In this document: positions 22,393-38,648 of the stretch, one piece after another
How positions within the stretch are numbered: position 1 is the stretch's first letter
How the letters are laid out: each line of letters begins with the position of its first letter
From: Chloroflexota bacterium
GTDB lineage: Bacteria; Chloroflexota; Dehalococcoidia; CAUJGQ01
NCBI GenBank assembly: GCA_036741355.1
Contig: DAINSK010000008.1
Location: 19,757 to 83,756 of the forward strand
DNA length: 64,000 bases
Direction of reading: 5' to 3'
Made by a program: the position numbers and the translations under genes
Notes under the pieces: model-generated
What the model was told of the DNA's origin: nothing
Databases searched by the model: none
Seen by the model: the letters and a program-made list of their open reading frames with translations, nothing else

Positions 22393-24681
22393 CTACGCGT
22401 TACCCGAGACGGCGACCTTTTCCAACGGCGCAAAGCTCAGCAACAGTTTCTTGATTCCCAGCTCTCCCTTGAACGCGACCGTCACTTCGACGTCTCCGTC
22501 TCGCGGCGTCGCCGTAATCACGATACCCTGACCGAACTGCGCGTGACGAACGACGTCACCCTTTTCGTATGCGCACACTGCATCGTCGGTTTCCGGCTCC
22601 GGCGGACGGGTGGCGAACGAGACGATCCGCTCGCGTACGCGCCGCGGTCCGGAATATTGTGCTTCTGCGCGGCTGCGCGTCGTCGTAAGCGACACAGGGA
22701 TATCGCGCAAGTAGCGCGACGGGTCGTTGTACGTCGCCGAACCCCAACTTGCCCGGCGAAAGGCGAAGGACAGGTGCAGACGCTCACGGGCACGGGTGAT
22801 ACCGACGTAGCACAGCCGCCGCTCTTCCTCCATCTGCTCGGGGTCGTCGGCAGAACGAGAATGGGGCAACAACCCCTCCTCCATGCCGGTGATGAACACG
22901 ACCGGGAATTCGAGACCCTTGGCCGCGTGCAGGGTTATTAACGTCACCGCGTCCTGCCGTTGATCAAGTTCGTCGACGTCCGAGACGAGCGCGACATCTT
23001 CGAGAAAAGCGGCCAGCGCCGATAGCGGCACGATGTCCTCGGATGGCGCCGCGTCCGGCCCGCGCTCATTGCCGATCTCTTCGACGGCCTTGTCATACTG
23101 CATTGCCAGTCCACCGAGCTCTTCGACGTTCCGCCAGCGCTCTTCACCGTCATCGAAGCTGTCGATAAGAAAGCGCTGGTAGTCGATCCGTTCCAGCACC
23201 TCTTTCAACAGGACTCCAACAGGCTCCCGTTCGGCCAGTTCGATGAACTCGTTGAGCATGCGCACAAAGTTCACCAGCAGCCGCGCGGCACGGGTGTTGA
23301 ATGGCGGCGGCGTCCCTGTCGGTGCATCGCTTAAACCCTGGTCGCGGTCGTGCAACACCTGCAATGCGTAGTATGGCGGCACGCCGAGCTCCTTCGCCCA
23401 TGCCGCCAGGTCGCTTAACGTTGAAGCACCGATACCGCGAGATGGTGTGTTGATGGCCCGCGCCAGGCTGATACCGTCACGGGGATTGTTGATCAGGCGC
23501 AGGTAGGCGAGGACATCCTTCACCTCGCGTCGCTCGTAGAATCGTGTGCCCCCGATCAGCCGGTAACGAGTACCGGACCGTACCAGCGCCTCTTCCAGCA
23601 CACGGGACTGGGCGTTCGTGCGGTACATGACGGCGAAGTCTCTTGGCCGCCGGCCGGAACGCAACCCCGCGGCGATCTCACGCACCACGTACGCTGCTTC
23701 GCCGTCGTCGTCCATCGCTTCAAAGATGGTTACGGGCAGCCCCTTCTCGTTCTCGGTCCACAGCCCTTTTTCGCGCCGCGTGCCCGATGCAGCGATGACG
23801 CCTTGTGCCGCGTCGAGGATGTTTTGCGTCGAGCGATAGTTTTGCTCGAGCAGGACGGTTCTGGCGCCGGGAAAGTCGTGTTCGAAATTGAGGATGTTGC
23901 GGATATCGGCTGCCCGCCAACGATAGATCGACTGGTCTGGGTCGCCCACGACGCAGATGTTCCCGTGACCTTGCGCAAGTTGGCGCATCAACGCGTACTG
24001 GACGATGTTCGTATCCTGAAACTCGTCCACGAGTACGTACAAGAAACGGTCCTGGTACTTCTTCAGCACCTCCGGCGCCACGACGAACAGGTCGAGGGTT
24101 CTTGTGAGCAGGTCGTCGAAGTCGACAGCGTTGTGCTGTTCCAACGCAGCCTGGTACCCACGGTACGACCGGGCGACGATCTCCTCAAAATAGGAGCTGA
24201 CCGCGCGTGAATACTCTTCAGGGCCGCAAAGCTCGTTTTTCGCTTTTGAAATCGCGCTCAGCACCGCGCGCGGGTTCGTTTGCTTCGGGTCGACGCCGAG
24301 CTCCGCGCAAACCCGCTTGACGATGTTGAGCTGGTCGCCGTCGTCAAAGATCGCGAAGTTGCGGTTGAGGCCAATGGCCGCGCCTTCCACTCGCAAGATG
24401 CGCGCACAGACCGAATGGAACGTTCCCAGGGTTACGTCGCGGGCGGTCGCGCCGAGAAGCGCCTCAACGCGCTCGCGCATCTCGCGGGCCGCCTTGTTCG
24501 TGAAGGTGACCGCCAGAATGCGCCACGGTCGCACGTCGCGATCGGCGACCAGGTACGCGATGCGGTGGCTGATGACCCGCGTCTTGCCGCTGCCCGGACC
24601 GGCGAGAATCAGCAGCGGACCCTCCACCGAGGTGACGGCCTCACGCTGGCGGGGATTCAAACCCGCGAGGAGCGCTTCCAT
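22393..24681 (-). CDS. pcrA: ATP-dependent DNA helicase PcrA/UvrD
   Basis: The Walker A is LILAGPGSGKTRV. The remaining UvrD-family motifs are present (TFTNKAAREM, VLVDEFQDTN, VGDPDQSIYRWR, QNYRST, VTLMTLH-like LITLHAAKGLEFPVV) and there is a C-terminal Tudor-like tail. The ATG at 24681 gives the canonical MEALLAGLNPRQ start. Confidence 0.93.
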   Translation of the reverse strand: MEALLAGLNPRQREAVTSVEGPLLILAGPGSGKTRVISHRIAYLVADRDVRPWRILAVTFTNKAAREMRERVEALLGATARDVTLGTFHSVCARILRVEGAAIGLNRNFAIFDDGDQLNIVKRVCAELGVDPKQTNPRAVLSAISKAKNELCGPEEYSRAVSSYFEEIVARSYRGYQAALEQHNAVDFDDLLTRTLDLFVVAPEVLKKYQDRFLYVLVDEFQDTNIVQYALMRQLAQGHGNICVVGDPDQSIYRWRAADIRNILNFEHDFPGARTVLLEQNYRSTQNILDAAQGVIAASGTRREKGLWTENEKGLPVTIFEAMDDDGEAAYVVREIAAGLRSGRRPRDFAVMYRTNAQSRVLEEALVRSGTRYRLIGGTRFYERREVKDVLAYLRLINNPRDGISLARAINTPSRGIGASTLSDLAAWAKELGVPPYYALQVLHDRDQGLSDAPTGTPPPFNTRAARLLVNFVRMLNEFIELAEREPVGVLLKEVLERIDYQRFLIDSFDDGEERWRNVEELGGLAMQYDKAVEEIGNERGPDAAPSEDIVPLSALAAFLEDVALVSDVDELDQRQDAVTLITLHAAKGLEFPVVFITGMEEGLLPHSRSADDPEQMEEERRLCYVGITRARERLHLSFAFRRASWGSATYNDPSRYLRDIPVSLTTTRSRAEAQYSGPRRVRERIVSFATRPPEPETDDAVCAYEKGDVVRHAQFGQGIVITATPRDGDVEVTVAFKGELGIKKLLLSFAPLEKVAVSGNA

Positions 24682-24905
24682 ACAGAATTTCACCCGGTCA
24701 CGAGGCGCATATAGACGTACAAAAGGCCGCGAACCGGCCGCCTGCATACGAGCCGATATCGGGCCACTACTGTAATATGGTAACACGTCGGGATGGCCTG
24801 GACCGCGTTCGCGTTTCGTCTATCGCGACCGTACGATATAATCCGGCGCAGGTTACAGCGCCCACGCGGGTCGATTACCGCGGCCACCCCGGAGCGAGGA
24901 ACTGC

Positions 24906-25499
24906 ATGGTCTCCTGGACACAGCCCGGCGCGGGAACGCTCGCCGTTTCATGGCCGGGTGGTAGCTGGCAGGACACGGCAAAACTCGCCGGAGCGCTGGT
25001 CGCGACCTACATCGTCGTTCTGTGGGTTGCGGCGCTGATCTGGGTATACCGCGATATCCGTGACCGGTCGCGTGACCCGTTCTACCACGCTGTCGCCGTC
25101 TTCGTCGTGCTGGTCTTCAACCTTCCCGGCCTGTGGCTGTACTTGATCCTGCGCCCTAAGGTGACGCTCGCCGAAGCCTACGAGCGCACGCTCGAAGAAG
25201 AGGCGCTGCTGCAGGAGTTGGAAGACCAGAAAGGGTGTCCCACCTGCCACCGGCGGGTGCTGGATGAGTACATCGTCTGCCCAACCTGCACGACCCAACT
25301 GAAAGAGCCGTGTCCGCAGTGCGCCAAGCCGCTGAGCTACTCGTGGGCCGCATGCCCCTTTTGCGCGACGCCGCGCCGGCAGCGCAGCCGCACCGGCGGC
25401 GACGAAGAGGCAACCGTGCCACTTCCCCGCATTCCGGCGACGACTTCGCAGACCACCCAGCCCCTGCGCGCCGGCCCCGTCGTGCCGAGACCGGAGTAA
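24906..25499 (+). CDS. membrane protein with a C-terminal double zinc-ribbon
   Basis: Two TM helices are followed by CPTCHRRVLDEYIVCPTC...CPQCAKPLSYSWAACPFC. The ORF extends 5' to 24777, but the ATG at 24906 is preferred. Confidence 0.55.
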   Translation: MVSWTQPGAGTLAVSWPGGSWQDTAKLAGALVATYIVVLWVAALIWVYRDIRDRSRDPFYHAVAVFVVLVFNLPGLWLYLILRPKVTLAEAYERTLEEEALLQELEDQKGCPTCHRRVLDEYIVCPTCTTQLKEPCPQCAKPLSYSWAACPFCATPRRQRSRTGGDEEATVPLPRIPATTSQTTQPLRAGPVVPRPE

Positions 25500-25514
25500 G
25501 CGCCTTCGCGCCGA

Positions 25515-25551
25515 CCTAACCCCCGGCCCCTTCCCTAAAGGAGGGAAGGGG
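25515..25551. repeat. GC-rich palindromic repeat, copy 3 (variant hairpin)
   Basis: The sequence is cctaacccccgg followed by the hairpin ccccttccct-aaagg-agggaagggg. Its flank is related to copies 1 and 6. Confidence 0.55.
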
Positions 25552-25594
25552 AGCTTATAGTCGGTAGTTGGTGAAGCATTTCGGAGCAGAACCA

Positions 25595-26137
25595 ATGCCA
25601 CGCCTTGAACCTCCGACCCGCGAGGCGCTCTTGCCTGTAGACCAGGCAATTTGGGACGAGATCGTCGGCTCACGCGGCCGGGTAATCGGGCCCTATCTGC
25701 CGCTGATGAAGATGCCAGCGCTGGCGCAACGGGTGGCGGCGCTCGGCGAACAGTTGCGCTTCCATTCATTGCTGCCCGCCGCCGACCGCGAATTGGCGAT
25801 CCTGGCGACCGGCCGGGAGGTCGGCGCGAAGTTTGAGTGGGCCGCGCACGAACCAATCGCCCGTCGCGAGGGAACGCGATCGGAAGCAATCGAAGCCGTT
25901 CGGAGCCAGGGTCCGCTCGATGCCCTGAGCGGCCGCGAACGATTGATCATCACCGTCGTCCGCTCGCTCTACCGAGATCACACCCTCTCCGATACGCTGC
26001 ATGCCCAGGCGATTAAAGACCTCGGCGAGCAGACGCTTGTAGAGCTGGTAACGCTCACCGGGTTCTACGGCCTGATCGGTTTTGTACTCAACGCGTTCGA
26101 GATACCGCTTCCTGAAGGGGCACAGCAGCCGTTCTGA
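25595..26137 (+). CDS. carboxymuconolactone decarboxylase (AhpD-like) family protein
   Basis: Weak CMD-family resemblance (EWAAHEPIARREG; an all-helical profile). Confidence 0.5.
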   Translation: MPRLEPPTREALLPVDQAIWDEIVGSRGRVIGPYLPLMKMPALAQRVAALGEQLRFHSLLPAADRELAILATGREVGAKFEWAAHEPIARREGTRSEAIEAVRSQGPLDALSGRERLIITVVRSLYRDHTLSDTLHAQAIKDLGEQTLVELVTLTGFYGLIGFVLNAFEIPLPEGAQQPF

Positions 26138-26202
26138 CTATTTTCTTGAATCCGGGAATGACGGCTTCCGAAGAGACAATCCTAAGAACCTTGGAGTAAA
26201 AG

Positions 26203-26760
26203 ATGCTTCTGCGGATCCCCGCCGCCCTTGCGATCCTCGTCGTCGTCCTCGTTTTCAGCGGACCTCCTGCGCTGAACGCTCAGCCCGCACCAGCCAGGAG
26301 CCCGGCAGCAAGAGCGCTGAGCCAGTACATTGCGCCGAACTATCCGCCGAGCCTGTACGACGAGGTAACCAACACAGATTATGTCGAAGCTCGGCCGGAA
26401 CTCGCGGACGCCGTGGCTGCCTTCGGGCGAATTACCGGCGTCGAGACGGATCACCTGAACCTGGGCGACGGCCATTCCAACGGCGTGCTCACGATCGACC
26501 TTTTCGATTCTCCCGCGGATGCCTGGGCTTTCGGACAAGCGTTTGTCGCGGCTGAAGACCCCGGCGAAGACCTGGCCGACCTTAGTCTGGGGGACGCTAG
26601 TCTCGGCAGCGATACGTTTATTGTTTTTCAACGGGGACGCGTCTTCGTCACGCTCGTTACGATCTCGGAGTACCAGGCGGGCAGTATCTACACGACAGAC
26701 CTGTTGAACATCGCGGGCCTCGTGGACGCCCGCATCGTCGCAGCGCCACCAGGGGATTAG
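26203..26760 (+). CDS. secreted hypothetical protein
   Basis: A signal peptide (ALAILVVVLVFSGPPALNAQPAP) is present. No recognisable domain. Confidence 0.45.
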   Translation: MLLRIPAALAILVVVLVFSGPPALNAQPAPARSPAARALSQYIAPNYPPSLYDEVTNTDYVEARPELADAVAAFGRITGVETDHLNLGDGHSNGVLTIDLFDSPADAWAFGQAFVAAEDPGEDLADLSLGDASLGSDTFIVFQRGRVFVTLVTISEYQAGSIYTTDLLNIAGLVDARIVAAPPGD

Positions 26761-26851
26761 ACCAGTTTGCTGTGCGTGGTTCGGGTTGGCAACGTGCGCG
26801 GACGTCCGACGCAGTGGTATTAGATCTGAGCTTAACCTGCCCGAACCGGAG

Positions 26852-27802
26852 CTACTTCAGCGCCGCGTCCACCACGGACCAGTCGACCCGGTCCTTGAGC
26901 AGTTCGGTTATACGCTCGAGCTTGCGCTCGCTGCCGAAGCGCGACTGCTGGAAGATGCCGGCCAGGCTATCAACGGTTGCACGCGTATCGGAAGGGGTGA
27001 GCATCACCGCCACCTCCTCGCTGGAGGCGCGGTCGAGCGTGTAGGGACTCGGCGAAATACCGCCGGTGAGGATCAGGCAGTCGGTATCGGTCGCGAGCGC
27101 CGCGAGCTGCAGATCGGTCTTGTCGCTGCGGGTGATCACTGCTTTGTGACCCCGCCGGGAGAAGTATGCATTACTGGAGTCGGTGGTGATCGGGCCGATC
27201 ATCAGCTCTTCGATGACCTGGTCCTCGGCCTCGTCGCCGAGCAACATCTCGGCCTTCAACGTGTCGGCAAGCTCGCCAATCGTGGGTGAATAGAGCACCC
27301 GGTCTTCCGGGATCGCGACGATCAACGGTAGAGCAGCCTCGTCCATCGCCGACTCCGCCGCCAGCATGAACCCCTGCGGCACCGCCGTGATGACCAGACC
27401 GAGAAAGCGCGGGCCAAGGTCGAGCGCCATGTTTTGCAGTTGAAGCGTGGCGTCCTCATTCGGCACGCCACGGTGCACGACGATAACGGCGGCATCCAGC
27501 GTTGATGCCGGAGCATTCGCGCCGGCGCCTGCGGGTGCCTCTATGACGGCAAAGCCGTCTTCGGCAAGCTGCGCGACGGAGGCCTCGGCGCCGTCCAGCG
27601 GTAGAGGGAGTCCACCGCGGCCGCGGGCGCCGGGCAGCGTCGCGAAATAGCCGGCGTCGGCAGTCGCCGCCGAGTCGCCGGTGCCCCCAAGGCGAACCCC
27701 GACGACGCGGCGCCCTTCAAAAGCCAGCCGCTGAACCAGCGCGGCCGCGATAGCGGTTCGCCCCGAGCGCGGCTGCAATGAGGCGATGAGCAAGGCCCGC
27801 AT
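26852..27802 (-). CDS. DRTGG-domain protein with an N-terminal CobQ/Pta-N-like P-loop-like domain
   Basis: AVITRSDKTDLQLAALATDTDCLILTGG is the DRTGG motif. The N-terminus RALLIASLQPRSGRTAIAAAL resembles the Pta N-terminal / dethiobiotin-synthetase-like fold. Confidence 0.55.
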   Translation of the reverse strand: MRALLIASLQPRSGRTAIAAALVQRLAFEGRRVVGVRLGGTGDSAATADAGYFATLPGARGRGGLPLPLDGAEASVAQLAEDGFAVIEAPAGAGANAPASTLDAAVIVVHRGVPNEDATLQLQNMALDLGPRFLGLVITAVPQGFMLAAESAMDEAALPLIVAIPEDRVLYSPTIGELADTLKAEMLLGDEAEDQVIEELMIGPITTDSSNAYFSRRGHKAVITRSDKTDLQLAALATDTDCLILTGGISPSPYTLDRASSEEVAVMLTPSDTRATVDSLAGIFQQSRFGSERKLERITELLKDRVDWSVVDAALK

Positions 27803-27985
27803 CGCGTGTGACTCCAGCGGCAATCTGCACGGCGCTCCGCGCCGCTGCCCGAAGTATACCAACGCCCCGAATACAGGCTAGCAGCGGGGACGGTCATCAT
27901 ATTACGGGTCCGCCATACTCAAACACCGGATCGCCACCTCGGCCAACCAGCACCACGACTGCCGACTTCCGACTGCCCACCCCGC

Positions 27986-28014
27986 TTGCAGTTGCCCGGC
28001 GGCTTTCCGATAAT
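27986..28014 (+). promoter_or_regulatory. candidate promoter for tRNA-Phe (TTGCAG, 17-nt spacer, GATAAT)
   Basis: A consensus-like -35/-10 pair with a 17-nt spacer, 56 nt upstream of the tRNA 5' end. Confidence 0.35.
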
Positions 28015-28070
28015 AACCGGGCAGCCGGTCGCACCTCGACCGCCCCGCAACGGCGCAACGCCCACCACAC

Positions 28071-28146
28071 GCCAAGGTAGCTCAGTCGGTAGAGCATGCG
28101 ACTGAAAATCGCAGTGTCGGCAGTTCGATTCTGCCCCTTGGCACCA
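28071..28146 (+). tRNA. tRNA-Phe (anticodon GAA)
   Basis: A cloverleaf with acceptor GCCAAGG/CCTTGGC, D-arm GCTC-AGTCGGTA-GAGC, anticodon arm TGCGA-CTGAAAA-TCGCA, T-arm GGCAG-TTCGATT-CTGCC and an encoded CCA. Confidence 0.9.
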
Positions 28147-28404
28147 GGGATCATGCGTGGAATCCGGCCGTTTGGCCAGAAGGGGTAATCTCGGGAGCCG
28201 AAGCGTAGGAGTGTCTGAGTTGCGGACTTCGTGTACCAGGCACCGGCCTCGCGCGGCGACGTTACAGCTGCCGGCAGAGAAGCCGATCACCGCGCGGCTC
28301 GGGGGGCCGCCCCGGCCCTTACGCGCCCGACATCGACGACGGCGTGAAGTCCGTCCCTTCCAGGAGTCGGGTCTGCTGGCGATGAAGCAGGTGGTCAAGA
28401 AGTG

Positions 28405-28468
28405 GTGAGGGAGGCGCGGCCCTCACCCCTCTTATCCCCTCTCCCAATACTGGGCGAGGGGACGATCC
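28405..28468. repeat. GC-rich palindromic repeat, copy 4
   Basis: A gtgaggg...ccctcac mini-hairpin, then the hairpin cccctctccca-atac-tgggcgagggg (one G:T position), then acgatcc. Confidence 0.6.
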
Positions 28469-28570
28469 AGCACGGGGACGACGCACCCCGTGGAACGGCT
28501 CGAACGGCTGTCGAGCGCCTAACCGCGGCTGTCCGGAATGCCAATAGCGCCCGGAGTCGGCAACCAGAGA

Positions 28571-28620
28571 CCGCCTCCCTCGCCCAGGATTGGGAGAGGG
28601 AGGACGGGAGCGTGAGGGCC
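28571..28620. repeat. GC-rich palindromic repeat, copy 5 (inverted orientation relative to copy 4)
   Basis: The hairpin cctccctcgccca-ggat-tgggagagggagg followed by ...cgtgagggcc. Its reverse complement matches copy 4, including the ggccctcac flank. Confidence 0.6.
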
Positions 28621-28652
28621 GTACGGTGCTACCGTAAAGTAGATGAGAACGG

Positions 28653-29027
28653 GTGGGTAAAGGAACTAGGGGACGCGGCGTGGTATCGAGCGGGGTAAAA
28701 GTAGTCGTAGAGCCGTCGGAGGGGCCGCTGGCGGAAGCGGTGCGCCGGCTGGTCGATCTGTTCCGGCCGGAGCGGATCTACCTGTTCGGCTCGCAGGCGC
28801 GCGGCGACGCGACCGAAGACAGCGACTACGATCTGATGGTCGTCGTACCCTCTGATGACGAGCCACGCTACCGCCGGGCCCAACGCGCGTACGGCGTTCT
28901 CTACGAAGTCGATCTGCCGGTCGACGTCCTGGTGCTCACGCACGACGAATTCGAACGACAAGCGCCGGTCGTCGCCTCACTCCCCGCAACGGTGCTGCGG
29001 GAGGGGCGGCTACTGTATGCGGACTGA
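28653..29027 (+). CDS. nucleotidyltransferase-domain protein (MNT-type, antitoxin-like)
   Basis: LFGSQARGDATEDSDYDLMVVV is the GS-x9-13-DxD polymerase-beta NTase motif. The 5' end is a GTG at 28653; a GTG at 28680 is an alternative. Confidence 0.7.
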   Translation: MGKGTRGRGVVSSGVKVVVEPSEGPLAEAVRRLVDLFRPERIYLFGSQARGDATEDSDYDLMVVVPSDDEPRYRRAQRAYGVLYEVDLPVDVLVLTHDEFERQAPVVASLPATVLREGRLLYAD

Positions 29028-29160
29028 GTACGCGGGCGAGTTTCGCTATCCCGGAGACGAGGACGTTCCTTCGATTGAGTCGACGAATGATGCGCTGGCT
29101 TTTGCCCGTCAGATCGTCCAGTTCGTCACTCTGCGCCTGCCGCCCGAGGCATCGGCGTGA
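29017..29160 (+). pseudogene. truncated HEPN-domain gene (only the C-terminal 47 aa remain)
   Basis: MRTEYAGEFRYPGDEDVPSIESTNDALAFARQIVQFV matches the C-terminal helix region (..RYP...p..eea.eal..A..iv.fv) of HEPN partners of MNT NTases. Its ATG overlaps the NTase stop by 11 nt, as in HEPN/MNT pairs, but about 70 N-terminal residues are missing. Confidence 0.5.
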
Positions 29161-29695
29161 ACCTGGCCGAGCTGCTGGCGGAGGATCTTGTCGTCTGGAT
29201 GAACGCGGTTCCGGACGGCGTGCCAAGGCGCGTGCTGCTCTGGCTGGACCCTGAGTCCACGTTTATACGAATGTTCGCGCCGGTGAGCCGGGCCCTCGCC
29301 GTACAACACGTTCGCCTGCTGCGACTGGAGCCGCCGGGGGGACAGCTCACCAATACGACTTTACCGTGCAGGCGGTGAACCAGAACCCGGCGAAGGAAGG
29401 CGCCGAAACGGCGCTTGCCTTCTTCATCTCGATGGTCTCAGCGCTGCTCGACCGTCGGCCCGACCCGACCACGGTGGTGGTCGGCGAGATGACCGTGCGC
29501 GGGTTGCTGCAGAAGGTCAGCAGCCTGCCCGAGCGCTTGCAATTAGCGTTGGAGGCCGGTGCAAAGCGAATCCTCATACCCAGTGAGAACAAACGCGACA
29601 TCGCCGACGTACCCGACGAAGTACTCAACAAGCTGCAGCCCGTCTTCTACACCGACCCGATGCACGCCGCCATCCGCGCGATGCGGCTCGAGTGA
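29157..29695 (+). pseudogene. Lon-like (S16) protease remnant: frameshifted fragments, with the catalytic Ser replaced
   Basis: The 29366..29695 ORF encodes KEGAETALAFFISMVSALLDRRPDPTTVVVGEMTVRGLL...ALEAGAKRILIPSENKRDIADVPDEVLNKLQPVFYTDPMHAAIRAM. This aligns with the Lon proteolytic domain (KDGPSAGVTMATAL...MTGEITLRG...AHRAGIKTVLIPEENKRDLEEIP) but has E in place of the active-site S and no upstream AAA+ module. The preceding 29157..29378 ORF is in another frame. Confidence 0.55.
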
Positions 29696-29872
29696 CCGAG
29701 TCCAGCACCCGGTTACCAGTTGCCGTGTCACGGAGAATGGGGTTACCAGGATAGACACAGCGAACGATAGTACGTCCAAACCGCTTGACAAATGATCTGA
29801 ATCTCTGAAAATCGGATATGCAACTTTACATGTCGCGCGGTCTCCCACGGACCTCGAGCAAGGTAGCGGGAT

Positions 29873-30226
29873 ATGAGCACTAGACCAGGTGAGCCTCCAA
29901 GCTTTATCACCACACGCATGGGCAAGCGAGGCACGCTCGTCATCCCTGCCGGCTTGCGCCAACAGATTGGGCTTGAAGCGGGCACTCCTGTTGTCGCCGA
30001 GGCACGAGACGGCGGCGTCTTCATTCGCCCCCTGGTCGGACGCGCCATCTCGTCCAAGCGGCGCCGCGCCGTCCTCGATGCGGCCAATCGTGCGTATGCG
30101 GCCCTGCGCGACAATCACAGCGCATGGGCGGCGGAGCAGACTGAGCGTACTGTATGGGATAGTTTTGCCTCGGAGACGCTGCCGCAGGACGTGTGGTCTG
30201 TGGATGACTCCCTCCCAGAGAAATAA
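29873..30226 (+). CDS. AbrB/MazE-like (SpoVT-AbrB swapped-hairpin) antitoxin-like protein, orphan
   Basis: MGKRGTLVIPAGLRQQIGLEAGTPVVAEARDGGVFIRP is a typical looped-hinge-helix DNA-binding fold. No cognate toxin gene lies downstream. Confidence 0.6.
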   Translation: MSTRPGEPPSFITTRMGKRGTLVIPAGLRQQIGLEAGTPVVAEARDGGVFIRPLVGRAISSKRRRAVLDAANRAYAALRDNHSAWAAEQTERTVWDSFASETLPQDVWSVDDSLPEK

Positions 30227-30375
30227 CGCCGCGCCACAACTTTTCCCAACGCGCCCGTCGCTCCAGGAATGAAGTTGTTGCTGGCGAAGGAACCATCGCG
30301 CTCCGGTGCGTGCGCGCGGTATCCTCGTTCGTGATGCCACACCCACGGCGCGTTTCCGGTAAGGATGGCGAGGCA

Positions 30376-30882
30376 ATGAAAGTATTCGACGCGGTGCGCA
30401 CCCTGACCGCTGTCCGGCGCTACACGGACCAATCCATCCCCGCTGACCTGGTGCGCCGCATCATGGAGTCCGCCTGGCTCACCGGCAGTTCCCGCAATGG
30501 CCAGCCGTGGCACTTCATCGCCGTGCAGGACAAAGCGATGCTTCGGCAGTTGGGCAACCTCGCGCGCACCGGGCCGTACATCGCCGACGCGGCGCTCGCC
30601 GTAGTCGTGGTCATGGAGGAGTCCGTATACAACGTGTCCGACGCCAGCCGTGCAGTGCAGTCCATGATGCTGACGGCCTGGGACGAGGGCGTGGCCTCGA
30701 ATTGGGTCGGCTTCGACAATCTGGAGTGGGCCAACGGCGTGCTGGAGATTCCGCCCGAGCTCAAGGTGCTGGCCATCGTACCGTTTGGTTATCCCCAGGT
30801 GCGCCTGGGACGCGGCAAGAAGGACCGCAAGCCATTAGCGGAGGTCGTGAGCAGTGAGCGGTACGGACAACCGTTTACGTAG
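30376..30882 (+). CDS. nitroreductase-family protein
   Basis: SSRNGQPWHFIAVQD is the (S/N)-x-x-N-x-Q-P-W-x-F FMN-binding motif. The C-terminal portion is EGVASNWVGF. Confidence 0.8.
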   Translation: MKVFDAVRTLTAVRRYTDQSIPADLVRRIMESAWLTGSSRNGQPWHFIAVQDKAMLRQLGNLARTGPYIADAALAVVVVMEESVYNVSDASRAVQSMMLTAWDEGVASNWVGFDNLEWANGVLEIPPELKVLAIVPFGYPQVRLGRGKKDRKPLAEVVSSERYGQPFT

Positions 30883-30927
30883 CCGCTGTGGCACCGAACG
30901 CAGCATGGAGACGGCTTTGGGCGGGCG

Positions 30928-31278
30928 TTATGGCAAGGTCGCATCAGCAAACGACCATTCCTTGTCGGTGTAGCGAAAGAGGATCTCCTGCGCCCGTTCC
31001 TCGTCGCTTGCCCGAACGCGAACGACAAGCGTGTTACATTGCCAGATGTTGCGCAGGAACTGGCTGGCGTGCTGGGTTCCCATGTCGGAGAGGATTAAAG
31101 CGTGCGCTTCGATGAGGATCACGTTGGTTGTGACTGACCGGTAGTGGGCATTGATGATATTACCAAGGATAGCACGGGCGTTGTCGTGATTGTCATCGCG
31201 ACGGTTGAGTAGAGCGCCATAGGAAGAGCTGTCATGGAAGACGCGGCGGAAACGAAGTGACCGGGGAAGGGCAACCAT
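30928..31278 (-). CDS. PIN-like toxin (VapC-like) of a type II TA pair
   Basis: 116 aa with a C-terminal ...WSFADATL (a PIN-like terminal Asp). The start is 4 nt from the stop of the upstream small gene. The assignment is tentative. Confidence 0.45.
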   Translation of the reverse strand: MVALPRSLRFRRVFHDSSSYGALLNRRDDNHDNARAILGNIINAHYRSVTTNVILIEAHALILSDMGTQHASQFLRNIWQCNTLVVRVRASDEERAQEILFRYTDKEWSFADATLP

Positions 31279-31281
31279 AGG

Positions 31282-31599
31282 TTATTTCGGGCGGTAGGCG
31301 CGAGCTAAAGCCTCATGCTTCTTGCCAGAGACGCCACCAGGAGTCTTACCCTCGCCGATGCTAATCAACCGAAAGAGCGCGTCATCGGGCTTGAGAATGC
31401 CGGTCTTGCGGCGGGCTCGGGGCTTTTGCGGTTGCCGGTTGAGACGCTCGTCAGCGTCGACTTGCTGCAGCGGAGCGATGGAAAGCGGCTTGCCCTCGAC
31501 ACGAACGACCTGCCGCTTGCCGCTCCTGGCAACGGCTTCAGCAGTCAGCATGAACTCTACCGCTGAAATAGTGTCTGGGCGGCCAGCTTCCCGAGTCAT
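31282..31599 (-). CDS. antitoxin-like small protein (VapB-type partner)
   Basis: 105 aa, basic, encoded immediately upstream of and coupled to the PIN-like gene. There is an AT-rich promoter patch upstream. Confidence 0.45.
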   Translation of the reverse strand: MTREAGRPDTISAVEFMLTAEAVARSGKRQVVRVEGKPLSIAPLQQVDADERLNRQPQKPRARRKTGILKPDDALFRLISIGEGKTPGGVSGKKHEALARAYRPK

Positions 31600-31820
31600 A
31601 TCTGTTTAACCTCGCGAACATATCTTACCAGATCGTTGAAAGTCATTTCTATGCAAGTCGTGATAGAAGCTCATGTACGGCCTTATGGTGTGTGAACCGC
31701 ATATAAAACTCATGAGTCGTCTAGAGGATCTCCAACCGCCCGCCTAGCTGCCCGTCCTTCGCCTCTCCGGTGCGCGCCCTCGTCCTGTACACTGGGCGGA
31801 GTTTATGTCCGGAGGCAGCG

Positions 31821-33920
31821 ATGAGCGACCCGTCCAGACTGTGCCGCCTTTCCTTGTTGTTGGCCGTGCTCCTGCTCGGCGCAGCGTGTAGCGGCACCAA
31901 TAACGCGAAAGAGGCACCAACCGGCACCGTTGCCGCCCGAGCCTCTTCGACCGTAAGCACCGGCAAAGTCCAGCCAACACAGTCCGCGACCAGCGCCAAA
32001 GTCCAGCCAATCCAGACGTCGACCGGCGCCGCCGCCTCGGGCCGCCTCGGTGGCCAGACGAGTCCCTCACCGGCGGCGCAGCAAACTCGTTCGGCGGCGC
32101 AACCGGGGCAGGCGCAGTGGACCGTCCTCGTCTACATGGCTGCCAACAACAACCTCGAAGGGTCTACGCTCCTGAACCTGCTGCAGATGGCGGACGCCGC
32201 GTCGTCGCCGCAGGTGAACGTCGTCGCACAGATAACACGCGACCCCGCCTCGGACATCACCGACGACATCGGCAACCTTGGGTCGTTCACAACAACAAAG
32301 CGCGTGCTGGTGCAACACGGTCGGTTCGTCGAGCGCGACGACCTGGGAAAGGTGAACTCCGGCGACCCGGCAACGCTCGCGGACTTCATCTCCTGGGGCG
32401 AGCGCACCTATCCGGCGCAGCACTATATGCTCGATCTTTCCGACCACGGTGGCGCCTGGCAGGGCTGCTGCGAAGACGACACGTTCAAGAACTTCATGGG
32501 CCTGGGTTCGCTTCAGCGGGCGTTCAAGCAAGGTGGCGGAGCGCCGCTCGACATTATCGGCTTTGACGCATGTTTGATGTCGAGCGTCGAGGTGGGGCTG
32601 GCGCTGCAGCCGTACGGCTCCCTATTAATAGGGTCGGAGGAGAGTGAACCGGGGTTGGGTTGGGACTACACGGCATTTCTGAGCGCGCTGGCCGGCAACC
32701 CCAGCATGAGCCCCAAAGCCCTCGCCCAGACGGTTGCCGATACGTACCTGGCGGGGCTCACAGACAAGGCGCCCGACGAGGCGCTGTATTCGACGTTCAG
32801 CGTCACCGACCTCCAGCAGTTGACCCCCGTTGGCACGACCACCGCTGCTTTCATGAGCGCGTTGAACAGGTACGTCAACAATGGCACGCAGTCGAACTTG
32901 CCCGAACGTCTGACGCGCTTCAGCCAGGTGTTTTTGCAGGCGGAATTCGAGACGCCGGCCTTCGGTTCCACGGGTCCCGGCGACCTTGGAATATCCTTGG
33001 ACCTTGGCATCCTTGCGCAGAACGCGGCCGTCGAATCGGGGTCGCCAGAGGTACAAAAGGCTTCCGCTGACCTCAAGCAGGCACTGAGCCGGGCCGTCGT
33101 CTACAACATCACCGGCAAGGGATATGCGGGGATGCCCCCGAGCGGCATCTCGATCGCCACGCTCGCCACCGGTGACACCCACAAGAAGGACGTCAAGGCC
33201 TACAGCAATCTCACGTTTGCCGCTCCGACGGGCTGGCTCGCCCTTGTCCAGGAGTTCGACACGGCGGTCGCCGCCGCATCGGACCTGGGCGCGCAGCCGA
33301 CCGTCGCGAGCCTGCAAACATCAGCTCGCTCCATTAGTAGAGGCGCGACCGCAACCATTAGCGGGCAGGTGCGCGACGACCTGGTTGTGACCGACGTAAA
33401 ACTGAGCGTGACGACGGCGCTGAACGGACAGGATGTGCAGATCAGCCAGGATAACCGTGTAAAGCACCTTGGCAAGCGGATCGACTTCACGTACGACTTT
33501 GACGGCCGCGGCTGGTATATGACTGACGGGAAAGTGAACGAGCTGGCATACAGCGAGGACTGGCGCCCCGGTCAGCGGATCGTCTTCGGGACGTACCGGC
33601 AAGTCCCACAGGATGATGGTGACGAGGCCTACCTGCTCATTGATGAGGCGTCGGGCCGGATACTGCAAGCATTCGACATTGAAGGCGACCTGGGCCTGCT
33701 CGGAGCCCTGCTCCCTGGCCCCCGTTCGACGTTCTCCCCATACGTCTTCGATGCCAGCGACGAAGTGACCGAGATTCCACTTGACCCGGTGAACCTCAAG
33801 ACGGCGAAATTCACTCGTTCGCCGTTACCGGCGGGGAAATACAGCATCGTGGTCGATGCTGACAACATCAGCGGCAACAGCGTTTCAGACTCGGTCTCGG
33901 TCACGGTTACCGGGCCGTGA
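31821..33920 (+). CDS. clostripain-family (C11) cysteine peptidase lipoprotein
   Basis: A lipobox LLLGAAC is followed by WTVLVYMAANNNLE...HYMLDLSDHGGAW...IGFDACLM. This includes the C11 catalytic His (DHGG) and Cys (FDAC). Confidence 0.8.
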   Translation: MSDPSRLCRLSLLLAVLLLGAACSGTNNAKEAPTGTVAARASSTVSTGKVQPTQSATSAKVQPIQTSTGAAASGRLGGQTSPSPAAQQTRSAAQPGQAQWTVLVYMAANNNLEGSTLLNLLQMADAASSPQVNVVAQITRDPASDITDDIGNLGSFTTTKRVLVQHGRFVERDDLGKVNSGDPATLADFISWGERTYPAQHYMLDLSDHGGAWQGCCEDDTFKNFMGLGSLQRAFKQGGGAPLDIIGFDACLMSSVEVGLALQPYGSLLIGSEESEPGLGWDYTAFLSALAGNPSMSPKALAQTVADTYLAGLTDKAPDEALYSTFSVTDLQQLTPVGTTTAAFMSALNRYVNNGTQSNLPERLTRFSQVFLQAEFETPAFGSTGPGDLGISLDLGILAQNAAVESGSPEVQKASADLKQALSRAVVYNITGKGYAGMPPSGISIATLATGDTHKKDVKAYSNLTFAAPTGWLALVQEFDTAVAAASDLGAQPTVASLQTSARSISRGATATISGQVRDDLVVTDVKLSVTTALNGQDVQISQDNRVKHLGKRIDFTYDFDGRGWYMTDGKVNELAYSEDWRPGQRIVFGTYRQVPQDDGDEAYLLIDEASGRILQAFDIEGDLGLLGALLPGPRSTFSPYVFDASDEVTEIPLDPVNLKTAKFTRSPLPAGKYSIVVDADNISGNSVSDSVSVTVTGP

Positions 33921-34118
33921 ACCAGGCGCGCGGACATCCCTGAAAGTGGCGCAGTCACGTCGCGTCAAGCGCTGATATCTGGGAGGGCCCTTCCAGCATT
34001 GGGTGCGGCGCCCAGGCGCTCGAAGGCGATCTGGGCCGCCTGAAGCTCCATCTCGGACGCATCGCGCATTGCTGCGTGAGATTAAACTAGCGCATTATCA
34101 ACCACAGGAGGCATATCA

Positions 34119-34403
34119 ATGTACGCGGTAATTCGACGTTACAAGAACCCGAAGCTGATCGGGGCCCTGGAACAACGACGTGCCGAAGTTGAAGCAGTCA
34201 TCCGTCCCGTACCCGGATTTGTAGCGTACTACCTCATCAAGTCGGGTGACGGCGGCACGTCCGTCACGGTGTGCGATGACAAAGCAGGAACTGACGCCTC
34301 AATCCAGCGGGCGGCGGAGTGGATTCGGAGCAACCTCCCAGACGCCGCTGGCGCCCCGCCCGAGGTCACGGAGGGCAACGTGATCCAGGAATTCACCCGG
34401 TAG
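34119..34403 (+). CDS. small ABM/Dabb-like (ferredoxin-fold) protein
   Basis: 94 aa. MYAVIRRYK...GFVAYYLIKSGDGGTSVTVCDDKAGTD fits an antibiotic-biosynthesis-monooxygenase-like fold. Confidence 0.45.
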   Translation: MYAVIRRYKNPKLIGALEQRRAEVEAVIRPVPGFVAYYLIKSGDGGTSVTVCDDKAGTDASIQRAAEWIRSNLPDAAGAPPEVTEGNVIQEFTR

Positions 34404-34472
34404 ACCGCCGGGTTCCGCTCAGGTTGGCATTACTACCAGCAACCGCGCAGCAAACAACGGGTATCCCGCGCT

Positions 34473-34511
34473 AATGGAACAGGCTCGCCATCTCGGCGGG
34501 CCTGTTCCATT
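34473..34511. promoter_or_regulatory. perfect 12-bp inverted repeat (aatggaacaggc / gcctgttccatt) with a 15-nt loop, upstream of the LLM oxidoreductase gene
   Basis: Seen directly in the sequence. No U-tract follows. It could be an operator or an RNA hairpin. Confidence 0.3.
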
Positions 34512-34615
34512 GCCGCGATCCGGCGCGGCGTCCCGTAAGTCTCGTGGTAGCATGGTTCCCGCTACGACGGCGGTCCCGGCCGCAGCCTGACGTCTCCCAA
34601 CGTGGATCGAAGACC

Positions 34616-35641
34616 ATGCAATTTGGACTGCTGTATGACTTTCGGAATCCGTCTCGGTGGCGGGTATCGAACGAGCGGCTATACGCGCAGACGATCGAGC
34701 AGATGGTGTACGCCGAGCAGCTTGGCTTTGATTCCGTCTGGATCTCGGAGCATCACTTCGTGGACGACGGCTACTGTCCATCGTTGTTGACCATGGCTGC
34801 CCACGTGGCAGCGCGCACGAGCCGTGTTCGAATCGGCACGTCCGTGCTGCTCCTGCCGTTCCACGATCCGCTGAGGGTGGCAGAAGACGCCAACACGGTG
34901 GACATCCTGTCAGGTGGACGGCTGGACCTGGGCATTGGGCTCGGATATCGCGCCGAGGAGTTCGAGGCGTTCGGCTTCCCGCGCCGTCAGCGTCCCGCGC
35001 GTTTCGAAGAGAACCTCGCCATCCTGCGCAACGCCCTCGCCGGTGAGCCGTTCACCCATGCGGGGCGCTATCATCGCATCGAACGCCCGATCACCGTTAC
35101 CCCACCGGGAATCCAGCAGCCGGCGGTACCGATCTGGTGCGCGGCATCGAGCCTTCCCGCGGCGCAGCGGGCGGCGCGAGAAAAGCTGCACCTGACGATC
35201 CGCGGTAGCCGCGACGTGTACGACGCCTGGGCAGACGGGCTGCACGTCCAGGGCGAGGATGTGGCGCAGTACCAGTGCGTCACGCGCCGTTCGTTTTATG
35301 TAACCGACGATCCCGAGCGGGCCTGGCGCGATCTCGGCCCGCACGTCCGCTACCAGACCGAGGCGTATGACGAGTGGGGTGCGGCGGGTCTGCAGGCCAC
35401 CACGGACGCTCAAGCCGAACTCGAGCGACGCGCGAGGCAGACCTGGATGATCGGTAACGCGGAAGAGGTCGAGGCGATGATCCGCGCCTACCACGAGCGG
35501 TTGCCGTTCACCCAATTACTCAGCTTCGGCGTCCCGCCGGGGTTGGAGCCGGAGATGATGAACCCGGCGCTGGAGCGGTTCGCCCGCGAGGTGATGCCAC
35601 GGCTTCGCCAGAGCGACGAGCAACCGGTCACCGCCCGGTGA
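34616..35641 (+). CDS. LLM-class flavin-dependent oxidoreductase (luciferase-like monooxygenase)
   Basis: MQFGLLYDF...QLGFDSVWISEHHF...LGIGLGYRAEEFEAFG are the LLM motifs. Confidence 0.85.
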   Translation: MQFGLLYDFRNPSRWRVSNERLYAQTIEQMVYAEQLGFDSVWISEHHFVDDGYCPSLLTMAAHVAARTSRVRIGTSVLLLPFHDPLRVAEDANTVDILSGGRLDLGIGLGYRAEEFEAFGFPRRQRPARFEENLAILRNALAGEPFTHAGRYHRIERPITVTPPGIQQPAVPIWCAASSLPAAQRAAREKLHLTIRGSRDVYDAWADGLHVQGEDVAQYQCVTRRSFYVTDDPERAWRDLGPHVRYQTEAYDEWGAAGLQATTDAQAELERRARQTWMIGNAEEVEAMIRAYHERLPFTQLLSFGVPPGLEPEMMNPALERFAREVMPRLRQSDEQPVTAR

Positions 35642-36440
35642 ATCGCGGCGGCCTCTTTTCCCGAAAAGCGGCCAATCCCTCCTGCAAATCTTCCAGCTCG
35701 CGCCCCTGCACCACCGCAGAGCCCTGGTGCCAATAGGCGCCGTCGGGATCTTTGTCCCAACCGGAATAGACCGCATTTTTGGTCAGACTGATCGCCGCGG
35801 TCGGCCCGGAGGCCAGCCGGCGTGCAAGCTCGTCCACGGCGTCGTCGAGCTCACTTGCATCGACTACCCTGGTGGCGAGGCCGAGACGCAGCGCCTCGGC
35901 GGCGTCCAGCGGTTCGCCGAGCAGCGTCATCTCCATCGCGACGCCGACGCCGACGTACTGCTGCAGGAGGTTCGTGCCGGTGGCCAGACCGCGCTGGATG
36001 AACGGCGTCGCCATGCGCGCGTCACGGGCCATGACCCGGAAATCGGCCGCCAGCGCCAGGTTGAAGCCGGCGCCGTATGCAAAGCCTTGGATACGGGCGA
36101 CGATCGGCTGGGGCAATTTCCGCATCAGGCGAACGGTGCTGGTCCAACGGCCCGGCCCGGCGACGTAGTGCTTGATCGGGCCGGCCCGTCGCTGCGACAC
36201 CGCCTCATCAGGAGCTCGTTCCCGCCCAAGCTCGTCGCCCGCGCAAAACGCCCGCCCGGCGCCCGCAAGCACGATCGCGCGGATGGTCGGATCATTCTCA
36301 CAGCGCGCGAACACGTCGTAGAGTTGCAATCCCAACTCATGGTTGATGGCGTTGAGCTTCTCGGGCCGGTTCAGCGTTATACGCGCTACCGCTCCGGCCT
36401 GCTCGAACATGAGGATCTGACCATCGGTGGGTGCGTTCAT
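35628..36440 (-). CDS. enoyl-CoA hydratase/isomerase (crotonase) family protein
   Basis: VARITLNRPEKLNAIN...AIVLAGAGRAFCAGDEL...ARIQGFAYGAGFNLALAADFRV is the crotonase oxyanion-hole signature. Confidence 0.88.
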   Translation of the reverse strand: MNAPTDGQILMFEQAGAVARITLNRPEKLNAINHELGLQLYDVFARCENDPTIRAIVLAGAGRAFCAGDELGRERAPDEAVSQRRAGPIKHYVAGPGRWTSTVRLMRKLPQPIVARIQGFAYGAGFNLALAADFRVMARDARMATPFIQRGLATGTNLLQQYVGVGVAMEMTLLGEPLDAAEALRLGLATRVVDASELDDAVDELARRLASGPTAAISLTKNAVYSGWDKDPDGAYWHQGSAVVQGRELEDLQEGLAAFREKRPPRFTGR

Positions 36441-36576
36441 ACGATAGGCTCCAGTCGTTGATGAAGACTAACGCGTCAATAGTAAATCCTTGCGGCGGCG
36501 ACGTGGCCGGGTGCACCCGTGCTCCGTGGCAACAGTACGCTCTGAGCATGTAGCATGGGACGGCCCCGGAGGAGTT

Positions 36577-37686
36577 ATGCGCCGTACGGTTACGATGGTC
36601 CTTTCCTCGATTTTGGTCTGCACCGTTCTTGGCGGAGGCAGCCGTTCCGGAGCCGCCGCAGCCAGCCACGGAGAACCGCGCCGCGTTCGCGTGATTATTT
36701 CAACCGATATCGCAACTGGCCTTCAGGGCGGGTGGCGCGGCGGAATCAACGATATCGACGACGGGCTGGCCGTCGCGATGGCGCTGTCCGACCCTGCCCT
36801 GGACGTCCGGGGCATCGTGCCGACGTTCGGTAACAACGACCTGGGGCCGGAGATGGTGGTCGCCGAGCGTCTCGTCCACGACCTTTTAGGCTCCTCGGTG
36901 CCCATTTATCCCGGCGCCGCCGTTCCGCTGTCCGACCCACAGGTCGCCTGGTTCGACGGCACCGCGGTCACCGAGTCGTGCGTGAACGACGGCGTCCGCT
37001 TCATGGCGTCGGAGTTGCGGCGCGGTCCCGTCACCGTGCTGGCGCTCGGCCCGCTGACCGATGTCGCCTGCCTGGTGCAGAATTTCCCGCGTGAGGCGAA
37101 CAATATTGCCGAAGTCGTATCGATCATGAGGCGAGCGCCCGGGCAGAGCTTCGCCATCGGTCCGATTTCGGGTCTCACCGACTTCAATCTGGCCAGGGAT
37201 CCGCGGGCTGCGCAGATTGTGTTGGAAGAGTCGGCCGTGCCGTTGACGTTTCTCACCTTTGCGCTGACCAGCAGCGCCTTCGTCCCGAGCAGCGCCATCG
37301 AAGCCCTCCGCGGTAACCCATCGCCGTTGGCGCGCTTCGTGGTCGACAGCGCCGATCCGTGGGTCGCGTTCTGGCAGAAGACCTTCCGAGAGGACGGGTT
37401 CCACCCTTGGGACCAGAATGCGGTCTATTATCCCGCCCACCGCGACACGTTTTTGTGCGTGCAGGCACAGCCCCAGTTCGTGCGCTGTCCGAGCGACCCG
37501 TATCACAGCGACGCCGACAACCCCTGCGCCGGTCACGGACCGGGACAGCCGACGAGCCTGGACAGGGAATCCGCGCAGCTCTGGTTGACAGCGGATACAG
37601 GTGGCCGGGCGACCATGTGCAGCGCCTACGCGAGCGATACTGCAAGGCAAGCCTTTCTCAACGCTACCGTCGCCTTCCTGGATTGA
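36577..37686 (+). CDS. secreted inosine-uridine-preferring nucleoside hydrolase family protein
   Basis: VIISTDIATGLQGGWRGGINDIDDGLAVAMAL is the IUNH DXDXXXDD-type Asp cluster, preceded by a signal peptide. Confidence 0.75.
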   Translation: MRRTVTMVLSSILVCTVLGGGSRSGAAAASHGEPRRVRVIISTDIATGLQGGWRGGINDIDDGLAVAMALSDPALDVRGIVPTFGNNDLGPEMVVAERLVHDLLGSSVPIYPGAAVPLSDPQVAWFDGTAVTESCVNDGVRFMASELRRGPVTVLALGPLTDVACLVQNFPREANNIAEVVSIMRRAPGQSFAIGPISGLTDFNLARDPRAAQIVLEESAVPLTFLTFALTSSAFVPSSAIEALRGNPSPLARFVVDSADPWVAFWQKTFREDGFHPWDQNAVYYPAHRDTFLCVQAQPQFVRCPSDPYHSDADNPCAGHGPGQPTSLDRESAQLWLTADTGGRATMCSAYASDTARQAFLNATVAFLD

Positions 37687-37716
37687 TAGAGAGACGACAC
37701 CATCACCGGCTTCCGG

Positions 37717-38493
37717 CTACTCTCCGGTCTGGGGCACGAGCACATACGAGGCGATGGTGGCCTTGCCGAGGTCTGAATACGGGAACTCGAAGTCGTCACC
37801 CTGGTGCGGTGAAAACGCGTTTTCTTGGAAGACGGCCTGGCCGGCCCGCACGACCTTGCCGGCCGAGTCATAGAACGTGGCGACCAATTCCGGCGAATTG
37901 ATCGTGGATCCGGTCGTGTTGGTGAGCTTTCCCGCGAGCGAGTAACCGCCTTTTGTCGTCGTGGTGACCTTTTCGCCGCTGACCACCAGTCCTTGCACCG
38001 GCTGTTGATCGGTCGGTTCACCCTCGGCAGTGAGATCGTATGACCCGACCTTCGCCTTGAGCTTCTTACCATCGCCAAAGACGAAGTAGAACGGCGTCCG
38101 TTCGCCTGCCGGTGTCATATTGCGCATACCGGTCGTCTCGGTCGTAGACTGCGCCACTGGTTTCTTGTTCGAATCGAACAGGGTCACGTGGATCGTGATC
38201 TCGCCGGCCGCCGTACTGGTATTGTTTCGGACCTCACCGTAGATCTCGTACGAGTCATTGGTGGCCAGGTTATCGGTGGAGCTGAGCACCTCAAACGACG
38301 GCGCACCGGGCGCCGGAGATGAGCTGACGTCCACAGACGAGGACGACCCGTTTTGCGCCGTGGCGACACTTGCCTGCGAACCCTGCGCCGTCGCGTTTGA
38401 TGGCGGAGCTTTCGAGGCTGCGCTCTTTCCCCCGCCACAGGCCGCTGCCAGGCCCAGAACCGTAACGATAGCCGCCAACGCCACAGCGCGCAT
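37717..38493 (-). CDS. lipoprotein, function unknown
   Basis: A lipobox LGLAAAC is followed by a Ser/Thr-rich linker and a beta-rich domain. Confidence 0.5.
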   Translation of the reverse strand: MRAVALAAIVTVLGLAAACGGGKSAASKAPPSNATAQGSQASVATAQNGSSSSVDVSSSPAPGAPSFEVLSSTDNLATNDSYEIYGEVRNNTSTAAGEITIHVTLFDSNKKPVAQSTTETTGMRNMTPAGERTPFYFVFGDGKKLKAKVGSYDLTAEGEPTDQQPVQGLVVSGEKVTTTTKGGYSLAGKLTNTTGSTINSPELVATFYDSAGKVVRAGQAVFQENAFSPHQGDDFEFPYSDLGKATIASYVLVPQTGE

Positions 38494-38648
38494 CGCGACC
38501 CTCCCCTGCCAGGCTGAACGCGTGAAACTTTTTGCTTACCAGACCAGTATTCAACAACTTTCGGCGGTTTCCGAGAACACAAACGGTAAAGCCGTGAAAG
38601 CCGATGGTGAAGGGAACTGGACTCTGACGATTCAATAGCTGGGACGCC

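Follow-up and report, generated by a model that had tools for sequence, protein, structure and literature searches.

Do the gene fragments that follow a tRNA-Phe gene in a Chloroflexota bacterium belong to several unrelated modules, or to one system that has fallen apart? The fragments lie in a stretch of 64,000 nucleotides (nt) of contig DAINSK010000008.1 (assembly GCA_036741355.1), which we call the window and whose coordinates are used throughout. A first-pass annotation, made from the letters alone, had described positions 28147–31760 as a decayed defence and toxin–antitoxin island inserted 3′ of the tRNA. All the features that it listed were found where it had placed them, with two factual corrections, to the identity of a Lon-like fragment and to the GC content of the background. 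Direct comparison with sister loci confirmed the decay. A reading of the pieces as separate modules did not survive this comparison: the pieces between about 28215 and 29695 are very probably the remains of one eroded type 1 BREX (bacteriophage exclusion) locus, with a nested pair of genes for a minimal nucleotidyltransferase (MNT) and a HEPN toxin. Further eroded toxin–antitoxin genes follow. Nor did insertion 3′ of tRNA-Phe find support, as no integrase, attachment (att) repeat or compositional signal was detected.

The pieces of one probable BREX locus

Type 1 BREX loci reportedly have the gene order brxA-brxB-brxC-pglX-pglZ-brxL. The corresponding pieces in the window were identified by profile and homology searches and by comparison with three sister contigs (L042, L043 and L044), short metagenome assemblies of 1.5–1.8 kb that were found via homologues of the MNT. 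They are, from left to right:

28215–28408, + strand: pglX 3′ remnant, the tail of the BREX methyltransferase gene (tblastn with the PglX C-terminus of L044; left edge approximate)
28680–29027, + strand: gene for an MntA-like MNT, an intact open reading frame (ORF) with a GTG start (Pfam NTP_transf_2, 2.6e-13; Polbeta, 1.2e-9)
29017–29160, + strand: remnant of a gene for a HepT-like HEPN toxin, 47 codons (tblastn to residues 90–136 of the L043 HEPN, 64% identity, E 3e-16)
29157–29348, + strand: pglZ 5′ remnant, codons 1–64 (phmmer to PglZ N-termini; tblastn with P0118, 52% identity, E 2e-15)
29349–29695, + strand: brxL 3′ remnant, the last ~108 codons, encoding a Lon-like C-terminal domain (NCBIfam TIGR02653; PADLOC BrxL)

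The window resembles type 1 BREX in that homologues of pglX, pglZ and brxL lie on one strand and follow one another in the canonical order. It differs in how little of them is kept, namely the tail of pglX, 64 pglZ codons and ~108 brxL codons, and the locus is non-functional.

The key to this identification is the region that had been described as a frameshifted Lon-like protease remnant. It proved to consist of two different genes, a PglZ N-terminus (29157–29378) and a BrxL C-terminus (29366–29695). The first is a 73-amino-acid (aa) ORF without a direct family match in profile searches. In phmmer, its residues 1–64 matched residues 1–62 of proteins of 854–868 aa, which PADLOC identifies as PglZ (1e-30 to 1e-41; best 1.7e-41). 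The native GTG start of pglZ overlaps the stop codon of the HEPN gene (GTGA), and past codon 64 the ORF continues out of frame to a chance stop codon. The second can be called as a 109-aa ORF from a GTG at 29366 (29366–29695). It matches positions 570–674 of 675 in the TIGR02653 BrxL model (6.2e-29), which are its last ~105 residues up to the model end, and positions 573–679 of 680 in the PADLOC BrxL model (3.4e-26). Pfam Lon_C is matched at positions 106–191 of 205, and a generic Lon fits far less well than BrxL. A single deletion of ~4 kb, and not a frameshift, has therefore joined a pglZ head to a brxL tail at about 29344–29351. The relative L038 has an intact pglZ with brxL directly behind it, the same arrangement as in the window. 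A tblastn search with PglZ and with the BrxL N-terminus found nothing more in the window, and no ORF in the 64 kb reaches 1000 aa, which leaves no room for an intact brxC or pglX. The genes brxA and brxB also appear to be absent, though the profile searches did not cover them.

One further contig (L037; ENA ERZ27248625) is identical to the window over 28065–29335, then shows two synonymous changes and diverges completely at ~29344, the position of the pglZ/brxL junction. Its divergent tail (L037:1272–1468) comprises ~200 nt of very GC-rich sequence that is not pglZ and had no match among the sequences searched. This tail could represent a true allele that has a different junction, an inserted sequence or a chimera made during assembly.

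At the left end, the first-pass annotation had overlooked a pglX tail between the tRNA and the MNT gene. In tblastn with the PglX C-terminus of L044, residues 216–244 aligned at 28254–28349 and residues 247–265 at 28349–28405 (E 2e-12). The query is itself well identified: the ORF upstream of the MNT gene in L044 is a PglX C-terminus (PADLOC PglX, 1.8e-32). The window remnant lacks an internal piece near 28280, is frameshifted near 28349, keeps its native stop codon and lies ~70 nt from tRNA-Phe. Positions 28215–28279 are common to the window and L042, where the sequence runs on into PglX residues 118–161.

A nested MNT–HEPN pair

MntA/HepT systems are type VII toxin–antitoxin systems, in which the MNT antitoxin AMPylates the HEPN RNase toxin. 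The pair in the window is like them in that the gene for a minimal nucleotidyltransferase with a GS...DxD motif overlaps the HEPN gene behind it. The catalytic motif of the MNT is kept (GS..RGD..DSDYD), and LFGSQARGDATEDSDYDL can be read in the translation. The pair is unlike them in that the MNT scores only 41.5 bits with the NCBIfam MntA equivalog, below the cut-off of 60, and in the truncation of the toxin. The MNT shares 90% identity with its counterpart in L042, 79% with that in L043 and 75% with that in L044. Its ratio of non-synonymous to synonymous divergence (dN/dS) against L042 is 0.28. A weak second MNT-like tblastn match at 57941–58009 was rejected as spurious, as it falls inside an amidohydrolase-like ORF on the other strand.

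The HEPN partner had been described as reduced to its last 47 codons, a view borne out by the tblastn match to L043 and by alignment with the sister HEPNs. The start codon, which overlaps the MNT stop as an ATG, and ~3 further codons now lead directly, in the same frame, into the last ~44 codons; the junction is at 29027/29028. In all, 89 codons were lost in frame; relative to L042, 266 nt are gone directly after the MNT stop (blastn blocks). The deletion takes residues ~4–92, including the conserved RKTHNL segment aligned in L042–L045, and leaves residues 1–3 and ~93–136. What is left equals the tail of the longer L042 HEPN except for one residue. Because the toxin has lost its catalytic R...H segment, the MNT antitoxin is left as an orphan. 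On its own, the 47-aa ORF had no match in a homologue search, in Pfam (E up to 10) or in PDB, and BLASTP against a Thermomicrobium HEPN came back empty. Its identity was therefore settled through the sister loci, and through them only.

The pair is also found elsewhere. A 70%-identical MNT–HEPN pair lies outside BREX, among hydantoinase genes on a 59-kb contig (L045; MNT P0164), which indicates that the module moves independently. HEPN modules nested in BREX loci, some of them fused to MNT, have been described as ‘backup effector’ modules (NAR 2026, PMC12839542). As in those, the MNT–HEPN pair lies inside a BREX operon, with the HEPN stop overlapping the pglZ start, both here and in L042–L044. 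Unlike in the fused modules, MNT and HEPN are encoded by separate genes, and the HEPN of the window is dead.

Sister loci

The sister contigs preserve other stages of the same locus. L043 and L044 carry the pglX 3′ end, the MNT gene, an intact HEPN gene of 136 codons and, directly after it, the start of pglZ (blastn); the L043 protein matches Pfam HEPN at 4e-23. L042 is decayed in its own way. Its MNT gene is followed by a longer HEPN gene with an apparent frameshift, and of brxL it keeps only the last 64 codons, to which 4 pglZ codons are joined in frame (68 aa). The pglZ and brxL blastn blocks overlap there by 5 nt, which points to microhomology at the junction. The L042 pglX remnant consists of residues 118–161 and 246–265; its internal deletion is not that of the window, and its left edge is the same. 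The AbrB gene that follows the brxL tail in the window does so in L042 as well.

Divergence between the window and L042 is almost entirely synonymous in the stubs. For the brxL tail (29504–29695), dN is 0.007 and dS 0.149, and for the HEPN tail (29029–29160), 0.011 and 0.13. The non-coding flank at 28147–28279 is 86.6% identical, and neighbouring non-coding DNA differs by 12–13%. We read the near-synonymous divergence of the stubs as the probable outcome of recent, independent deletions in both lineages after long purifying selection.

Neighbouring genes and elements

The remaining features of the segment are an element in the spacer between pglX and the MNT gene, and the right half of the region:

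28415–28622, no strand assigned: MITE-like (miniature inverted-repeat transposable element-like) hairpin element of ~205 nt, one long hairpin (z = −4.5)
29696–29917, + strand: AT-richer intergenic region 5′ of the AbrB gene, 53% GC, ~88% conserved in L042
29918–30226, + strand: AbrB/MazE-family antitoxin-like gene, intact (Pfam MazE_antitoxin, 1.5e-6; NCBIfam AbrB domain, 29.3 bits, cut-off 28.3)
30376–30882, + strand: nitroreductase-family gene, 168 aa, intact (Pfam Nitroreductase, 1.6e-17)
30928–31278, − strand: putative vapC remnant, a VapC20-like PIN toxin gene without about its last 30 residues (phmmer against PDB 5wzf_A; Pfam PIN)
31282–31551, − strand: VapB-like partner, 89 aa (105 aa from a start at 31599), intact, 3 nt from vapC (gene calls on identical contigs)
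31600–31820, no strand assigned: AT-richer intergenic region that separates the vapB-like gene from a divergent Peptidase_C11 gene starting at 31821, 51.5–52.5% GC

Profile searches of the fragments matched brxL, the MNT gene, the AbrB gene and the nitroreductase gene to families and gave no direct family match for the pglZ head or the 47-codon ORF. Intact in the segment are the MNT gene, the AbrB-type antitoxin gene, the VapB-like gene and the nitroreductase gene.

The spacer element corresponds to two repeat copies already noticed in the first reading. They are inverted 24-nt arms (28437–28460 and 28577–28600, 96% complementary) and form the cores of ~45-nt terminal inverted repeats at about 28419–28463 and 28574–28618, each of which contains a CCCTCKCCC...GGGMGAGGG hairpin. 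The element is missing in L042 and L044 and present in part, as copies of the arms, in L043; no further copy was found elsewhere in the 64 kb. Beside the repeat copies in L043, between the pglX stop and the MNT gene, lies an ORF for a DUF559/Vsr-like endonuclease (L043:380–733; Pfam, 3.5e-33). This ORF is another insertion into the same BREX spacer.

The AbrB gene had been described as lacking a toxin, and indeed no toxin gene adjoins it: the next gene is that for the nitroreductase, 150 nt downstream, whose protein product is found in identical form on 10 metagenome contigs. In the gap after the AbrB gene, at 30270–30290, an ATG opens the peptide MKLLL, a common start of PIN toxins, and is followed by unrelated sequence; this might be the last trace of a lost toxin. 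The AT-richer patches of the segment are real, with 53% GC at 29700–29899 and 51.5–52.5% at 31500–31799, and both are intergenic. The first contains a promoter-like site before the AbrB gene (TTGACA-16-GAAAAT at 29785–29812, promoter scan). An Rfam scan of 27900–32000 found the tRNA as the sole RNA family.

The last two genes had been described as a coupled PIN-like and antitoxin-like pair. They do adjoin, but the PIN toxin is probably not intact: alignment to VapC20 indicates that its 3′ end is lost. VapC20 of Mycobacterium tuberculosis cleaves the sarcin–ricin loop of 23S rRNA. It is the best PDB match of the window protein (5wzf_A, E 0.0025), with residues 12–114 aligned to positions 14–113 of the 144-residue chain. 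Two residues past the conserved SF(A/V)DAT the ORF ends, ~30 residues short of the VapC20 chain end, at a break 45 nt away from the stop codon of the nitroreductase gene. Three of the four acidic PIN residues align with VapC20 (D16, E57 and D112), and the fourth is missing. Pfam PIN is matched over profile positions 4–94 of 120 (E 0.014; 16.5 bits against a cut-off of 23.6). With moderate confidence, we consider the gene a 3′-truncated vapC. The pair may further resemble VapBC20 in its small, apparently translationally coupled upstream gene, and is unlike it in the weak similarity, in the shortened PIN protein and in a partner without a VapB family match. Plasmid sequences, searched by tblastn with the PIN-like protein, yielded no match.

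A proposed course of decay

The ancestral order would have been (brxA-brxB-brxC)-pglX-[MNT-HEPN]-pglZ-brxL, with an MntA/HepT-type pair nested between pglX and pglZ. An early deletion, suggested by the left edge that the pglX remnants of the window and L042 have in common, would have taken everything from brxA through the 5′ part of pglX and brought the pglX tail to within ~70 nt of tRNA-Phe. Later, lineage-specific deletions would have removed more pieces, at least one of them at a 5-nt microhomology. Both of the toxins that can be examined, HEPN and VapC, would have been disabled, and all three antitoxin or antitoxin-like genes left intact. No BREX defence could then be produced from the locus, and the MNT, AbrB and VapB-like genes would persist as orphan antitoxins or regulators.

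Several points weigh against this reconstruction. The whole locus was never met intact on one contig, and we infer the ancestral brxA–brxC from the canonical type 1 layout. The sister contigs are short, and sequencing error might account for the HEPN frameshift in L042. Recent deletion sits awkwardly with the older-looking pglX truncation common to the window and L042. As for the toxin–antitoxin genes, the PIN assignment stays weak, with a Pfam score below the cut-off and the PDB E value of 0.0025, and a single-sequence AlphaFold model of the protein was unusable (mean predicted local distance difference test score, pLDDT, 45.7). The VapB-like gene had no match in Pfam, NCBIfam, PADLOC or PDB; it is from its position, and nothing else, that we infer an antitoxin.

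Possible integration at tRNA-Phe

Alternatively, the whole segment 28147–31760 may be a single island that entered the chromosome at the 3′ end of tRNA-Phe and decayed after the loss of its integrase. We regard this as possible and somewhat doubtful. The tRNA in question is:

28071–28146, + strand: tRNA-Phe(GAA), intact (ARAGORN; Rfam RF00005, 72 bits)

Integrative elements and islands linked to tRNA genes are said to use att sites that extend from the anticodon loop to the 3′ end. The segment agrees with such islands in that it begins at the tRNA 3′ end, and its defence and toxin–antitoxin genes are the accessory content that an island would carry. Relatives have other genes at the site. Source names of the homologues point to a Dehalococcoidia-like (Chloroflexota) population from soil. 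The adjacency of the tRNA to a flanking gene for a DRTGG protein is kept in four of the relatives, the nearest available for synteny, with only 60–67% amino-acid identity in the DRTGG protein. Beyond the tRNA, they carry katG (L021), a glyoxalase-like gene (L023), HD-GYP and GGDEF-EAL genes (L031) or ABC transporters (L033). No empty tRNA-Phe site was found among these relatives, which may count against an island, and a scan of genome contigs with the DRTGG protein gave only distant gammaproteobacterial Pta-like matches and no relatives of the lineage. An ORF beside tRNA-Phe in L023 looked by eye like a remnant of a tyrosine integrase and was dropped after Pfam gave no match.

Within the window, the marks of an island were not found. 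Among the ORFs of 28147–31760, none matched an integrase in Pfam, PADLOC or NCBIfam profiles. Probes of 16, 23 and 24 nt from the tRNA 3′ end matched only the tRNA itself over the whole 64 kb, with up to 2–3 mismatches allowed, in agreement with the earlier observation that no direct repeat lies downstream. The composition of the segment also held no signal of foreign origin. Its GC content is 62.1%, against 63.3 ± 1.15% for the window (not the 66% previously given as background), and falls within ~1 standard deviation of same-sized windows. Its tetranucleotide distance is at the 55th percentile, which is average usage. With no integrase, att repeat, atypical composition or empty site, the insertion 3′ of tRNA-Phe that the first-pass annotation had claimed is undemonstrated.

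The sister contig L042 bears on both sides of this question. The last 46 nt of tRNA-Phe (28101–28146 in the window) recur within L042:1–238 as a partial copy that spans the anticodon loop through CCA. The ~190 nt in front of it are unrelated and visibly richer in AT, and no tRNA was called in this region by ARAGORN. The copy looks like the attR site of an element integrated in the tRNA-Phe of that strain, so that the gene would have served as an attachment site in a sister strain. Together with the variable genes beyond the tRNA in relatives, this attR-like copy marks the tRNA-Phe site as integration-prone in the lineage. However, the copy lies to the left of the BREX remnant, so that, for that integration event, the remnant would belong to the chromosomal flank rather than to the element. 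The chances that BREX itself came in by way of tRNA-Phe are roughly even.

Unlikely readings: small proteins and assembly artefacts

A dead BREX locus is also to be preferred over the very unlikely reading that the small ORFs are complete, functional small proteins, such as a stand-alone Lon-C-like domain protein and a 47-aa helical peptide. Gene finders do call all of the ORFs on several contigs, the frame of the brxL tail stays open to translation in the window and in L042 alike, and dN is low relative to dS in the brxL and HEPN tails. However, every ORF aligns with no more than one end of a far longer family, and the alignment reaches the very start or end of that family. In the sister loci, longer or intact versions occupy the same position. 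Moreover, the deletion end points differ among lineages, and the pglZ head runs out of frame to a chance stop codon. For the BrxL C-terminal stub alone, we consider it quite unlikely that it is a retained functional small protein, for example one that modulates BREX-like systems or Lon-domain assemblies. This idea draws on its translatable frame in both lineages (the 109-aa ORF and the 68-aa fusion of L042), on its near-synonymous change next to diverged non-coding flanks, and on its persistence although pglX was already truncated in the common ancestor.

That the deletions and truncations are metagenome assembly artefacts, chimeric joins or collapsed strains has a negligible chance: the window does come from a metagenome population, L037 diverges exactly at the pglZ/brxL junction and another contig (L011) is a mosaic of stretches with 0% and 5–10% divergence, but six contigs, drawn from different samples and from both JGI and ENA assemblies, are 99.8–100% identical over their overlaps with 27800–32000, all of the junctions included, and the deletion in HEPN keeps both the reading frame and the overlap of MNT stop and HEPN start.

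Compared with window positions 23895–43359, L011 shows almost no differences over ~27600–35000; divergence of 5–10% is seen past 35000 and in patches around 24000 and 27000. Window positions 36559–37699 (an IU_nuc_hydro gene) and 40208–42663 are missing from it. The pattern reflects either a recent recombination of a ~7-kb block that includes the BREX remnant or strain mixing in the assembly.

What the locus means

Decay of this kind is ordinary in genomes, and it is the documentation that is unusually good here. BREX has been described before, as have nested HEPN/MNT modules and variable regions linked to tRNA genes; the locus is a new example of them and opens no new question. Its use is in part practical. 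Automatic annotation would give a ‘Lon protease fragment’, a ‘nucleotidyltransferase’ and several hypothetical proteins, and seeing one dead BREX system avoids counting the pieces as separate defence or protease genes. The locus also forms a natural series with three sister lineages, in which the pglX-[MNT-HEPN]-pglZ layout is either intact or differently deleted. In this series, the HEPN toxin appears to have been inactivated in two different ways while its antitoxin survives, which fits the expectation that orphan antitoxins outlive their toxins.

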